A stretch of 64,000 nucleotides of DNA, from the NCBI GenBank assembly GCA_963816145.1, contig CAWFJP010000014.1, positions 160,001-224,000 on the forward strand, read 5' to 3'. How positions within the stretch are numbered: position 1 is the first letter of the stretch; each line of letters starts with the position of its first letter. Position numbers and translations under genes: made by a program. Of this stretch, positions 42,046-46,719 are shown piece after piece. Below the pieces are notes generated by a model that did not search any database, had not been told where the DNA came from, and saw only the letters and a list, made by a program, of their open reading frames with translations. Source of the DNA: an uncultured delta proteobacterium. Lineage in GTDB: Bacteria; Desulfobacterota; Binatia; UBA9968.

Positions 42046-43152
42046 ATGCCGGCACCTGTGGCAATTCTAGCAAAACCGGACGATCACCGCGGCATTCTCA
42101 CCATGGCAGAAGCGGTCGACGCGATGCTCGATGCATTTCGCAATTGGGCGAATGACCCGCTGGTGGCGGAGCTGCGGCGACGCACGCACACGCCGAAGAA
42201 CGTGCGCATTACCCTACATCAGGGCGCGGCACCGGCTTATGGCACGACGGGCATCATGACCCATGCGGAGCTTGTGCGCATTTTCGGCGACAAACAAAAA
42301 TATCCGCGCCGCGGCCGCCCGGTTCTGGTGCTTTATGACAGCGACACGGCGGCTTTGAAGCTCATTCTCGTCGGCGAAATGCATCCCAAGGAGCTGCCGG
42401 ACGCCAACAGCGTGGTGGCGATGCCGACGGCCTGTGCCTCGATGGTCGGCACCGATTTGCTCGCGCGCAAAGACTGCCGGGTCGCCGGGGTTTTCGGTGC
42501 TGGAGATCAAGCGAAGATGCATCTCCTGGCGCTCACCTGTATTCGCAAGTCGATTGACAAGGCGCGCGTCTTCAGTCCGACCCGCGAGACTCGCGAAAAC
42601 TTTGCCGCGGAAATGAGCGCCGTATTGGGCATCGCAGTGACCGCCGCGGAGAGCGCTGCAGATGTTGTCGACGGCGCCGACGTAATCCTGTGCGCGACCA
42701 ATTCAAATGTTCCGGTATTCGACGGCAATTGGCTGGTTCCCGGCCAACATGTCACCTCGATCGTTTCGAGCAATATCGGATTGAAAAAGCGCGGCCACGT
42801 CATTGAAATGCGCCGCGAGATCGACGAGAGGACTCTGGAGCGGGCCGATATTTTGCTGACCAACGTTTGGGGACAGGAAGAGCTGGACAAGACCGCGGTG
42901 TTCTGGGAAGCCTCTCTCGATCGCCCAAACATCGCGGGCAAGATTGTCGATAGCGGAGAGCTCATCCGCGGTGAAAAAAGCGGACGAACCGACGCTGCTC
43001 AAATTACCTATTTCAAAAACTGCGCGTTTTGGGGTATTGGCGCGGCGGCCATCGGCGGACTGATCTATGACAAACTCTTGCAGCAGCGCAAGGGTTTGGC
43101 GCTCGACTTCAACCCGCATGAGTTCTATGACGATACTTGGGCGGAGGATTAG
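42046..43152 (+). CDS. Ornithine cyclodeaminase/mu-crystallin family protein
   Basis: FGAGDQA Rossmann motif, ADVILCATNS, GQHVTSI, REID and ITYFK. Confidence 0.88.
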   Translation: MPAPVAILAKPDDHRGILTMAEAVDAMLDAFRNWANDPLVAELRRRTHTPKNVRITLHQGAAPAYGTTGIMTHAELVRIFGDKQKYPRRGRPVLVLYDSDTAALKLILVGEMHPKELPDANSVVAMPTACASMVGTDLLARKDCRVAGVFGAGDQAKMHLLALTCIRKSIDKARVFSPTRETRENFAAEMSAVLGIAVTAAESAADVVDGADVILCATNSNVPVFDGNWLVPGQHVTSIVSSNIGLKKRGHVIEMRREIDERTLERADILLTNVWGQEELDKTAVFWEASLDRPNIAGKIVDSGELIRGEKSGRTDAAQITYFKNCAFWGIGAAAIGGLIYDKLLQQRKGLALDFNPHEFYDDTWAED

Positions 43153-43218
43153 ATTTGTTTGAATGAGCGGGAAGCCTGGGTTACAGCGCGAAGATGATCG
43201 CAAGGAGGATTGGATAGC

Positions 43219-44124
43219 ATGCGCGGTATAACACCGAGACGAGAACAGGGCATGGCCGATCCGGTGTTGGCCGAGATGGTTCATGCCACCGGGGCGACGG
43301 AGTCGCGTCACTACGCGGCGGTGAAGCCGATCATTCAAGCCTATCGCGCCAGTTGGGTGAAGTTGGCGCCGTTTCGCGACGGGCCGGTCAACCCCCAGCG
43401 CGTGCCGGTCGACGATCCGGCGGCGATGACGGCGCAGATCAAGGCGAAGGCGAGCGAGTGGGGCGCCAACTTGGTCGGCGTCTGCCGCCTGCAGCCGCAT
43501 ATGATCGATCTCGGCTCGGAAGTGTCCCACGAGTTTGTCATCGCCTGCTGCGTCGCCGAAGACTACGAAAAGGTGCTTCAAGGCCCGGACGCCGTCGAGG
43601 AAGAGGCGATGCGGACGTACGCGAAGTGCACCGAGATATCCACTGCGTTAGCTGCCTACGTCCGTGAGATGGGATATCCCGCCATCGCGCACCACAACGG
43701 CGCCAGCGAGGTGCAGGCGATCCCAATTTTCTACCAAGTCGGATTCGGCGAGCTCGGCCGGCATGGCAGTCTGATCAATGAAAAGTATGGCGCGAGCTTT
43801 CGCCCTGGTTTCGTCACCACCGATTTGCCGCTCGTCGAAGACCAGCCGCGAGAGTTCGGCGTTCAGGACTTCTGCATGAACTGCAACGTTTGCCAGCGCA
43901 ACTGCCCGGGCGACGCGATCCCGCAAGACCATGTCATGACCCATGGCATCAAGCGCTGGCTGATCGATTTGGAGAAGTGCTATCCGTATTCCCGCCTGCG
44001 CGAGGAGTATTGCCATCTCTGCGTCGACGTCTGCCCGTACAACGTGAAGTCGCATCCGGACACGTACAAAGCGCTTATGAAAGAGCGTAAACAGGTTGGC
44101 TATAAGACACCAAAGACTTATTGA
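43219..44124 (+). CDS. Reductive-dehalogenase/QueG-like 2x[4Fe-4S] protein (probably cobalamin-binding, no TAT signal)
   Basis: GANLVG, GFGELGRHG, VTTDLPL, FCMNCNVCQRNCP and C..CHLCVDVCP. ATG 43219 follows AAGGAGG. Confidence 0.85.
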   Translation: MRGITPRREQGMADPVLAEMVHATGATESRHYAAVKPIIQAYRASWVKLAPFRDGPVNPQRVPVDDPAAMTAQIKAKASEWGANLVGVCRLQPHMIDLGSEVSHEFVIACCVAEDYEKVLQGPDAVEEEAMRTYAKCTEISTALAAYVREMGYPAIAHHNGASEVQAIPIFYQVGFGELGRHGSLINEKYGASFRPGFVTTDLPLVEDQPREFGVQDFCMNCNVCQRNCPGDAIPQDHVMTHGIKRWLIDLEKCYPYSRLREEYCHLCVDVCPYNVKSHPDTYKALMKERKQVGYKTPKTY

Positions 44125-44203: not shown

Positions 44204-44401
44204 ATGGAAAAGCTTTACGTCAATGCCATCGGACCCGACGGTGATGTCAGCACTGTCGGTTTGTTTTACTCGCAACCTGAAGCGCAAAAAACTGTTGACA
44301 TGCTGGGAACCAATCCCGAGCGAGTCGGTTATCGCTACGAAATCGTCGAAGCGGTGCGGCATGTGCTTTCAGAAAAAAATCCGCCAACCAGCAAGGAGTA
44401 G
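44204..44401 (+). CDS. Small hypothetical protein (65 aa)
   Basis: ATG start; stop lies 2 nt before the next ATG, and the ORF contains that gene's AAGGAG RBS. Confidence 0.5.
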   Translation: MEKLYVNAIGPDGDVSTVGLFYSQPEAQKTVDMLGTNPERVGYRYEIVEAVRHVLSEKNPPTSKE

Positions 44402-44403
44402 CC

Positions 44404-44955
44404 ATGCCCTATATCAAGACGATTCCGCCCACAGAGGCGACCGGAAAACTGAAGGAAGTCTATGAAACGGCGGGCGGCCCTTCGGCGGCGCGCGGCAAGG
44501 TCGCGATGGTGCGCCAGGTGCAAAGCCTCAATGCCGACGCGCTCGCCGCCTGGAGCGATCTTGGCGCAGCGATCATGCACGGCCCGTCGCGCCTGAGCAG
44601 GCGCCAGCGCGAGATGATCGCCACGGTGGTGTCGGCGACCAATCATTGCAGCTATTGAACGACTGCGCACGGAGAGGCTCTCCGTAGCGAAACCCACGAC
44701 GATCCGTTCGTCAAAGCGATTAAACAGGATTACACCAAGATTGATTTAACGGCAGCGGAGCGGGCCATGCTCGATTACGCGGTGAAACTGACGGTGACGC
44801 CGTCGAGCGTAACGGCAGAAGATGTTTTGATATTGCGCGCTCATGGGTTCGACGACCGCGATATACTCGACATCATCTACGTTGTTTGTTTGTACAATTT
44901 TAACGACCGGCTGGCCGACGCGACCGGCATCAAAGGGCATGATTTTCTTAGTTGA
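44404..44955 (+). CDS. AhpD/carboxymuconolactone-decarboxylase-like peroxidase selenoprotein (CxxU), 183 aa
   Basis: REMIATVVS..NHCSY-TGA(44656-44658)-TTAHGEAL continues in frame into ORF 44767-44955 (AMLDYA.KLT..P...NRLAD-like C-terminus). Confidence 0.9.
44666..44689 (+). promoter_or_regulatory. Bacterial SECIS-like hairpin
   Basis: CGC-ACGGAGA-[GGC]-TCTCCGT-A-GCG; G-initiated loop starts 17 nt after the UGA. Confidence 0.8.
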
Positions 44956-44994
44956 CATCGTCCGCCGCCGGGTGTGACGCACAGGTTGGCCATT

Positions 44995-45876
44995 ATGCCG
45001 TTCAGCTACGCCGAGTTCATGACTCAACTGATGGCGCCCAAGCCCTATCCAGCGCAGGCGGTTTTTACCGCGCCCCGGATAACGGCACTGCGCAAGCCGG
45101 TTGCAGAATGCACCCTCGGTGTCTTTACCAGCTGTGGCGCACAGCTGAAGGACGACCGACCGCTGGCCGAGACCAACGATCTTTCCTACCGGCTGCTGCA
45201 CCGTGACGTAGCGCTCTCGGAGCTGAAGATCAATCACATGACGCCGTCGCGCAAGTGGGCGCTGGAGGACTTGAACGTCGCTTATCCGCGCGACCGGCTG
45301 ATCGAGTTGGAGGCGGAGGGGGTTTTCAAGAAGCTTGCGCCCAGCGCCGTTTCCATGGTCGGTTCGATCACGTTGTACACGGAGCTTTTGAGCGATGCCG
45401 TGCCGCGGATCAAGCAAGAATTCGACCGGCAGGAAGTCGACCTGGTGCTGATCGTGCCGTTTTGACCGCAATGCCATCGGTCCGTGGGACTGATCGCAAG
45501 AGGACTGGAAGCGAGAGGTTTGCCGACCGTGAGCCTGAGCACCGTATGGGACATCACTCTGGCGGTAAAACCGCCGCGGCCATGCTTCCTGGATTTCCCG
45601 ATCGGCTGTCCGGTCGGCAAGCCGGGCATGCCGGAATTGCAGCGGCAAATACTGAAAGCGGTCTTCTCCCAGGCGGAGAAATTTACCGGTGATTGGGCGC
45701 TGCATGAGCTGCCCTTCCAGTGGGCAAAGGATGGCAGCCGTCATTGGGAGGAAGAGCTCAAGGATCTCTACCGGCGAGGCCTCGGCACGGTGGAGGCGCA
45801 TGTTGCGGATCATCGCCGTCGCGGTGAGGCGCTGATCGGTCAAGAGGAAGCGTTTGCGCTGCGCTGCAATTGCTAG
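44995..45876 (+). CDS. Glycine/sarcosine/betaine/D-proline reductase selenoprotein B (GrdB/PrdB)-like protein (UxxC), ~293 aa
   Basis: VDLVLIVPF-TGA(45463-45465)-PQCHRSVGLIARGLEARGLPTV joins ORFs 44974-45465 and 45484-45876 in one frame; also D.N..YP.DRL.ELE.EG and PPR..F..FP.G.P.G. Confidence 0.92.
45472..45498 (+). promoter_or_regulatory. Bacterial SECIS-like hairpin
   Basis: TGC-C-ATCGGTCC-[GTG]-GGACTGAT-C-GCA; GU loop starts 18 nt after the UGA. Confidence 0.8.
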
Positions 45877-45933: not shown

Positions 45934-46719
45934 ATGATCGAACTCTATCACAACGACATGTCGGTGTGCGCGCAAAAGGTGCGTTTTACCCTGGCCGAGA
46001 AGAAACTTGCTTGGGACAGCCACCATATGAATCTGCGCGCCGGCGATCAGCAAAAGCCGGAATATTTGAAACTCAATCCCAACGCCCTGGTGCCTACCCT
46101 GGTCGACGATGGCACCGTTATTATCGAATCCACCGTGATCAACGAATATCTCGATGACGCGTATCCCGACCTGCCGCTGCGTCCGGCGGCCGCGACCGCG
46201 CGGGCGCGCATGCGTCTATGGACCAAACAGTTGGATGAAGGCGTTCACGCCGCGACCAGCGTGGTCAGCTCGGCGATCGCCTTTCGCTATCAAAAGCTCG
46301 CCATCGGCATGGAAGCGCTCGAAGAATTTCACAGGAAGATGCCCGACCCGGTGAAGCGCGAGAAGAGCTGGGAGAATGTCACCAAGGGCGTCGAGTCGCG
46401 CTTTTTCCCCGAGGCGGTCATGCGCTTCGACAAATTGCTTGGCGACATGGAGTCGGCCTTGAAAGACTCTCCGTGGCTCGCCGGCAAAGAGTTCTCGCTG
46501 GCCGATATCGGCTACGCGCCCTATGTTACCCGGCTCGATCACCTGCAACTGCAATTTCTCTGGGACAAGCGGCCGCACATTCCAGAATGGTACGATCGGC
46601 TGCGCGAACGGCGCGCGTATGGTGAGGCGCTGGAAAACTGGTTCAATCCCGCCTATTTGCCGCTGATGAAGGAAAAAGGATCGGAAGCGCGAGCCCGGGT
46701 CAAAGAGATCGTCGGCTAA
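45934..46719 (+). CDS. Glutathione S-transferase family protein (N-terminal SVC motif)
   Basis: LYH..MSVCAQKVR, LNP...VPTL, ES..I.EYLD and FSLADI. Confidence 0.9.
   Translation: MIELYHNDMSVCAQKVRFTLAEKKLAWDSHHMNLRAGDQQKPEYLKLNPNALVPTLVDDGTVIIESTVINEYLDDAYPDLPLRPAAATARARMRLWTKQLDEGVHAATSVVSSAIAFRYQKLAIGMEALEEFHRKMPDPVKREKSWENVTKGVESRFFPEAVMRFDKLLGDMESALKDSPWLAGKEFSLADIGYAPYVTRLDHLQLQFLWDKRPHIPEWYDRLRERRAYGEALENWFNPAYLPLMKEKGSEARARVKEIVG

Follow-up and report, generated by a model that had tools for sequence, protein, structure and literature searches.

A split AhpD-like gene and its neighbours

The gene considered here lies on the forward strand of the window, by which we mean the whole 64,000-nucleotide stretch of DNA that was analysed. 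From an ATG at position 44404, preceded by a Shine-Dalgarno-like AAGGAG (44393..44398, 5 nt 5' of the ATG, as read from the sequence), the reading frame runs into an in-frame TGA at 44656-44658, within the local motif N-H-C-S-Y-TGA-T-T-A-H, and continues for 98 open codons to a TGA at 44953-44955. The listing of open reading frames under table 11 gives two pieces, one of 84 aa (44404..44658) and one of 62 aa (44767..44955). With the internal TGA read as selenocysteine (Sec), the complete coding sequence is 44404..44955 and comprises 183 residues followed by the terminal TGA, and the internal codon supplies residue U85 at the second Cys position of a CxxC motif. An earlier note on this DNA had described the frame as staying open for about 99 codons past the TGA; the openness holds, but the exact count is 98.

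Profile searches were done with the read-through protein (P0001), in which C was written in place of U. This protein matched the NCBIfam model TIGR01926, 'peroxidase-related enzyme' (TIGR01926/COG2128), with 143.6 bits against a cut-off of 81.8, and the match extends across the TGA, aligning residues 11-176 to profile positions 10-173 of 178; a six-frame search of the genome with the same model gave 135.6 bits for the gene. The Pfam domain CMD (PF02627) was matched with an E value of 3.9e-13 and the AhpD core domain model TIGR00778 with 37 bits. Two models for related (seleno)proteins scored under their cut-offs, i.e. NF041238 (AhpD_rel_CFYUT (seleno)protein, model length 357 positions) with 63.3 bits against 175 and NF053654 (GroundWater_YciW YciW-related (seleno)protein) with 25.7 bits against 310. 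Based on these below-cut-off scores, the protein is a member of the broad family that falls outside both subfamilies; its motif reads C-S-Y-U-T, and that of NF041238 reads C-F-Y-U-T.

Five solved AhpD-like structures (PDB 2pfx, 3c1l, 2oyo, 6k40 and 2prr) match the protein by sequence similarity with E values from 1e-27 to 4e-20 and are alignable over 131-172 residues. They belong to the TIGR01926-type 'uncharacterized peroxidase-related proteins' (3c1l being Mlr4105 and 6k40 AhpD), and the word 'uncharacterized' stands in three of the five depositor names. Of these, 2pfx and 3c1l have the motif C-x-Y-C-x-x-A-H-G in common with the protein described here, and in both alignments the second Cys of C-x-Y-C stands opposite residue 85, so that these proteins carry Cys at the position of Sec here.

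Upstream on the same strand lie an ornithine cyclodeaminase family gene (42046-43152) and a gene for a homologue of NpRdhA-type reductive dehalogenases (43210..44124, 304 aa, two 4Fe-4S motifs), which matches PDB 4ras with an E value of 3.6e-55 and scores 119.2 bits with TIGR02486, under the cut-off of 160.35. Between the dehalogenase homologue and the AhpD-like gene there is a 65-aa ORF on the same strand (44204..44401), beginning M-E-K-L-Y-V-N-A-I-G-P-D-G, for which the profile search gave no family match. Downstream, and also on the forward strand, follow a PrdB-like gene (44974-45876) and a glutathione S-transferase gene (45934-46719). No AhpC was present among the five neighbouring genes scanned.

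The PrdB-like gene, directly downstream and in the same reading frame, is a second candidate selenoprotein gene (UxxC). It has an in-frame TGA at 45463-45465 within V-P-F-U-P-Q-C, scores 115.5 bits with TIGR04483, under the cut-off of 300, and has no Pfam match. By eye, a 6-bp hairpin (45478-45483 with 45487-45492, loop GTG) can be drawn 12 nt past this TGA, but the minimum-energy fold given by RNAfold differs from it. One database fragment, P0004, reads on into a PrdB-like start. We also considered a conserved pairing of the AhpD-like and PrdB-like genes and rejected it, because a PrdB-like gene lies downstream in none of 13 relatives' loci and in only one (L071) of 25 close loci from a genome collection.

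The internal TGA in homologues and relatives

A protein search returned 118 hits, of which 29 were aligned with the query (alignment A1) and 19 further ones were fetched. At the column of the internal TGA, 24 of the 29 aligned homologues have Cys and three have W, one ends exactly at Y84 and one is scrambled. Of the 24 rows with Cys, 23 belong to more distant homologues with lengths of about 180-225 aa and 28-51% identity; the other is a close fragment, P0005 (72% identity), which is either a true Cys form or a protein in which U was stored as C. The three W entries are all close, and most likely they represent TGA translated as Trp owing to the genetic code chosen by the annotating pipeline. 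Among the 19 further hits, four are N-terminal pieces that end at ...C-S-Y and 12 begin directly after the column, seven with M-T-A-H-G-E-A-L-R and five with M-T/A/V-H-H, the latter pointing to other clades whose copies are split at this point as well; of the remaining three, one has its start further downstream and the other two are truncated or chimeric. Because 16 of these 19 database entries are pieces that end or start at the TGA, selenoprotein counts for these soil bacteria are too low.

In a six-frame search of 60 relatives, an in-frame TGA was found in all 15 orthologue rows (66-85% identity, 14 genomes), the orthologue of G024 having two, and dozens of paralogue rows at 35-49% identity contain exactly one TGA each. 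Wherever the locus was read, the TGA occupies one and the same codon: this was so for the window's genome, for 13 loci of published relatives (L021-L030, L032-L034) and for the degraded copy L039. Two unpublished loci, L031 (G005) and L035 (G035), appear in the six-frame search and in the reading of the loci and their codons but were left out of the covariation, neighbourhood (13 relatives), dN/dS, entropy and terminal-stop counts, and none of our claims depends on them. Two copies look degraded, with a second TGA and a scrambled N-terminus in L034 (G024:C96) and extra stops in L039 (G025:C33), as a result of either gene decay or errors in the draft assemblies. Searching the genome collection gave 80 loci; 25 of these are close (70-84% identity), most of them in metagenome-assembled genomes with the title Candidatus Binatia or the older labels Deltaproteobacteria or Syntrophobacter. 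At the column, each of the 25 has TGA; among 75 matches that are more distant and span the column, the codon is TGA in 65, TGC or TGT in four and another codon in six. Because the same species representatives lie behind both, the count among the 60 relatives and the count in the genome collection are not independent. In 14 orthologues the gene ends with TGA ten times, with TAA three times and with TAG once, whereas neither TAA nor TAG ever stands at the internal codon. The earlier note had placed the TGA at 44656 at the second Cys of the AhpD CxxC..H motif and had expected homologues to have Cys or TGA in this column, and the aligned homologues and solved structures, on the one hand, and the close genome loci, on the other, agree with both statements.

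For 13 intact published sequences in a gap-free alignment (78 pairs), the median pairwise dN/dS is 0.123 over codons 1-84 and 0.100 over codons 86-183, with mean synonymous differences per site of 0.58 and 0.65, respectively. Because purifying selection is similar on both sides of the TGA, we conclude that the part after the TGA is translated in this frame.

The codon was also looked up in Logan contigs from three runs belonging to three studies, one of which may be the source sample. These contigs are X3 (1707 nt, covering 44204-45398), X9 (702 nt, 44204-44712) and X1 (151 nt, 44602-44712); run X1 has the largest word share and gave only short pieces at the locus. No difference is listed at 44656-44658 in any of the three, and the TGA, which the earlier note had wanted verified as a possible assembly error, is thus kept in all three runs. 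At 44590-44604, contigs of three runs share five substitutions and also a one-base insertion offset by a one-base deletion, as compared with the window, without loss of the frame; this variant appears to encode R-I-T, which is nearer to the relatives, instead of R-L-S, and the discrepancy reflects either variation between strains or a slip in the local assembly. The RNA-library run X15 contains 151-nt contigs, at least 99% alike, at 44417-44567, 45239-45389 and 45528-45678, with the TGA of the AhpD-like gene outside them. These contigs, which lie over parts of both candidate selenoprotein genes, are a weak hint of expression, as DNA carry-over is possible and contig depth cannot rank expression.

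The downstream hairpin and the selenocysteine machinery

Within the coding sequence, a SECIS-like hairpin (44666..44689, forward strand) follows the internal TGA. Its upper stem consists of seven perfect base pairs (44669-44675 with 44679-44685) around the loop GGC (44676-44678), and a lower 3-bp extension (44666-44668 with 44687-44689) is set off by the bulged A44686. Counted from the TGA, the extension lies at 7 nt, the perfect stem at 10 nt and the apical loop at 17 nt. Under the geometry rules for bacterial SECIS elements, the apical loop lies 16-37 nt past the UGA and has a G among its first bases. The earlier note was right about the 7-bp stem, the 3-bp extension and the G-initiated loop, but the distance of 17 nt at which it let the stem start is that of the apical loop. 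RNAfold, which it had suggested as a check, returns the hairpin, but the fold of this single sequence does not stand out from chance (z -1.63; 15 of 200 shuffles did equally well) and we did not use it as evidence.

The evidence that the hairpin matters is comparative. The upper stem and loop, 17 nt in all, hardly differ between any of the orthologues, while flanking synonymous sites vary freely. Specifically, in 14 sequences the third-position entropy of codons 89-94 (H-G-E-A-L-R) is 0.124 bits, compared with 1.017 bits for the remaining 98 conserved degenerate codons. Six codons drawn at random gave no value this low in 100000 draws, and among 46 contiguous windows this one ranks lowest. The codon before the TGA (TAT) is likewise invariant in 15/15 orthologues. 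Among the orthologues, neither the place nor the sequence of the lower 3-bp extension is conserved, and in the two long near-identical contigs, X3 and X9, the hairpin shows no differences from the window.

Covariation was tested for the 7-bp upper stem in 40 distinct sequences including paralogues (gap-free alignment A2). Over these sequences 97.9% of the stem cells are paired, compared with 27-65% when the partner strand is slid, and the covariation score was reached by none of 500 shuffles. At one position of the stem, 28 sequences have GC and 11 have CG; at another, 37 have AU and two have GC; and GU wobbles occur at three other pairs. The loop opens with G in 39 rows out of 40, and L059, the row that differs, is without this hairpin; in the paralogues the hairpin stands at the same place in different letters. 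This covariation is modest, in that it consists of two pairs in related sequences and probably reflects few independent events, and it agrees with the result for synonymous sites. A search of Rfam at the gathering threshold gave no match anywhere in the window; because, to our knowledge, Rfam holds no bacterial SECIS family, this null result says little.

The window's genome has the complete Sec machinery within 15 kb on contig C30, with all components above their cut-offs. The genes occur in the order selA (C30:562492-563823, 616.5 bits), selB (C30:563896-565779, 417.4 bits, full-length match) and selD (C30:565877-566803, 380.1 bits), and tRNA-Sec lies ~10 kb further on (C30:576761-576851, 74.2 bits; anticodon tca according to ARAGORN). 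selD is itself of the Sec form, with an in-frame TGA at codon 11 within K-A-A-G-U-A-A-K. The earlier note had made its reading depend on tRNA-Sec and SelB, and the genome contains both in addition to selA and selD. TGA is not a general sense codon in this genome, because selA, selB and nine other matches of the selB search are without internal stops. Elsewhere in the same genome (C13:117122-117598) there is a second AhpD-like gene with an in-frame TGA (C-P-Y-U), which scores 54 bits with TIGR01926, below the cut-off.

Interpretation and relation to known AhpD-like proteins

We considered several other explanations for the internal TGA. The gene could be a pseudogene in which a nonsense mutation changed the catalytic Cys codon (TGC or TGT) to TGA and the downstream frame is decaying. 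Such a mutation requires one base change only and the copies in G024 and G025 do look degraded; however, the same TGA is found in 25/25 close loci and 65/75 more distant matches, the codons past the TGA have a dN/dS of 0.10 at nearly saturated synonymous divergence, and the hairpin is constrained, making this explanation exceedingly improbable. We assign an equally minute probability to a sequencing or assembly error in place of TGC, TGT or TGG: even though the genome is a metagenome-assembled draft of 31 contigs with 6.72% contamination, the codon is kept in contigs from three runs and three studies, and the orthologues from other assemblies all have TGA. Only a little more credible, and still very unlikely, is a recoding of UGA that does not involve Sec, either by near-cognate read-through with Trp or Cys or by termination and re-initiation giving two polypeptides. 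An ATG directly after the TGA in 8/15 orthologues would allow a restart in principle, and the W in three database entries would fit read-through; but the codon after the TGA is ACG in the window and ACC or GTG in other orthologues, and the W readings most likely have the origin given above. Moreover, the codon aligns with the redox Cys, which is the classic position of Sec, the constrained hairpin lies at SECIS distance and the genome has the complete machinery.

Another possibility accepts that Sec insertion is real but holds that it is inefficient, with the 84-residue N-terminal fragment as the main product and the selenium supply setting the amount of full-length protein. Bacterial decoding of UGA as Sec competes with release factor 2, and the invariant TAT before the UGA hints at selection on codon context; on the other hand, the 84-residue fragment would be without half of the fold, including Sec itself, and we consider this scenario unlikely, albeit less so than the preceding ones.

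We conclude that the mid-gene TGA almost certainly encodes selenocysteine and that the locus is a genuine CxxU selenoprotein gene split by ORF callers. With a probability of roughly 93%, 44404-44955 is one gene for an AhpD-like (TIGR01926/COG2128) putative thiol/selenol oxidoreductase, with a predicted all-helical CMD fold, in which UGA is decoded as Sec. The conservation of the TGA, the coding constraint after it, the hairpin and the machinery thus support what the earlier note had inferred about the UGA, and nothing that it had named as counter-evidence was found.

By analogy to the established bacterial pathway, SelB-GTP with Sec-tRNA(Sec, anticodon UCA) would bind the hairpin at 44666-44689 during translation. 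Because the apical loop starts 17 nt past the UGA, the UGA would then be in the ribosomal A site, Sec would be inserted and translation would continue. The product would have a C82-x-x-U85 redox centre in which Sec stands for the motif's second Cys, and Sec would presumably alternate between the selenol form and a selenenylsulfide formed with the resolving thiol, C82, the presumed outcome being reduction of a peroxide, a peroxiredoxin or a protein disulfide. In AhpD of Mycobacterium tuberculosis, the attacking residue is the second Cys. For TIGR01926 proteins, any biochemical function is putative rather than established.

Judging from the alignments, E70, C82, Y84, U85 and H89 are putative relay residues; E70, C82, Y84 and H89 are at least 90% conserved in alignment A1, and E70, Y84 and H89 may assist U85. 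The spacing of E70-C82-Y84-U85-H89 is identical to that of the published AhpD proton relay of M. tuberculosis (Glu118-Cys130-His132-Cys133-His137) and to that of the relay in PA0269 of Pseudomonas aeruginosa (Glu36-Cys48-Tyr50-Cys51-His55), as these are given in the cited passages (PMC3141380), and the protein described here has the Tyr variant. Unlike in M. tuberculosis AhpD, which is an AhpC reductase, and PA0269, the second Cys is Sec here, and among the AhpD models the core domain TIGR00778 alone is matched.

This kind of protein is not new, as AhpD-like CxxU selenoproteins have been in print since 2005. AhpD-like (COG2128) CxxU selenoproteins were reported with 27 sequences from the Sargasso Sea in 2005 (PMC1088965) and, with 299 sequences, ranked fourth by number among the selenoprotein families of the GOS survey of 2008 (PMC2398784); they are also listed in a review of 2022 (PMC9312934), and BSepDB used the family as a worked example in 2026 (PMC13326102). 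The statement in the earlier note that CxxU AhpD-like selenoproteins are known from computational surveys agrees with the cited parts of the first three of these sources. As described there, the published family (COG2128/YciW; 'AhpD-like 1') belongs to the same domain family, is CxxU with Sec at the second Cys position as here, has widespread Cys homologues and, like the gene described here, has a SECIS hairpin just past the UGA with a guanosine in a small apical loop. In comparison with the family as presented in these sources, the present member comes from a soil or wetland lineage whose relatives are titled Candidatus Binatia and is part of a module with a dehalogenase homologue. We found no paper naming this subgroup, and a literature search for Binat- together with selenocysteine gave nothing relevant among the matches listed, as judged by titles and the start of abstracts.

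The genes for the dehalogenase homologue, the 65-aa ORF and the AhpD-like protein are directly adjacent in 17 of the 25 close loci; in two of the remaining eight, the upstream sequence is too short for a decision. In the 17 loci, the dehalogenase homologue (79-95% identity) is more conserved than the selenoprotein gene (71-76%), and the 65-aa ORF has 57-81% identity. We considered that the 65-aa ORF and the AhpD-like gene might be fused, because the fragments P0020, P0053 and P0057 run through both in one frame, but rejected this idea because an intervening stop is present in 17/17 genome loci; the three fusion-like fragments may be variants or miscalls.

In the relatives, up to three further AhpD-like genes, most of them with a TGA, flank the trio, and the window's genome is without extra AhpD-like copies at this locus. 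The locus G004:C9:614850-618895 (L040) contains five AhpD-like copies within 4 kb, of which four have a single in-frame TGA, and tandem AhpD-like paralogues around the dehalogenase homologue were also observed in G017:C41, G014:C2, G019:C16 and G012:C316. The hairpins of the tandem paralogues have compensatory changes relative to that of the gene described here.

A genetic tie between an AhpD-family protein and a reductive dehalogenase has a precedent in SMUL_1530 of Sulfurospirillum multivorans, which is encoded in the organohalide-respiration gene region and was detected only in cells grown with tetrachloroethene; in the cited passages, its authors proposed that it protects proteins of the pathway from oxidative stress (PMC4585668). 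SMUL_1530, which has the AhpD-family motif CxxCxxxH and is likened here by description and not by sequence, differs in being a Cys form, in its association with a respiratory dehalogenase and in belonging to another phylum. Tentatively, and with the odds leaning well against the idea, we speculate that the Sec-containing AhpD-like protein is a dedicated redox partner or protector of the NpRdhA-like cobalamin/iron-sulfur enzyme rather than a general antioxidant, and that the two form, together with the 65-aa protein, a three-gene selenium-dependent module peculiar to soil bacteria of the Binatia type.

The gene adds one more case in which Sec replaces the second Cys of the AhpD CxxC motif, and annotation in this lineage reports it either in two pieces or as a 'peroxidase-related enzyme' cut short. 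Heavy use of Sec among relatives of this genome shows in the tandem arrays of TGA-bearing AhpD-like genes that several of them have, and in the window a second selenoprotein gene adjoins the first. The conserved link to the dehalogenase homologue provides a testable lead to a substrate of the family.
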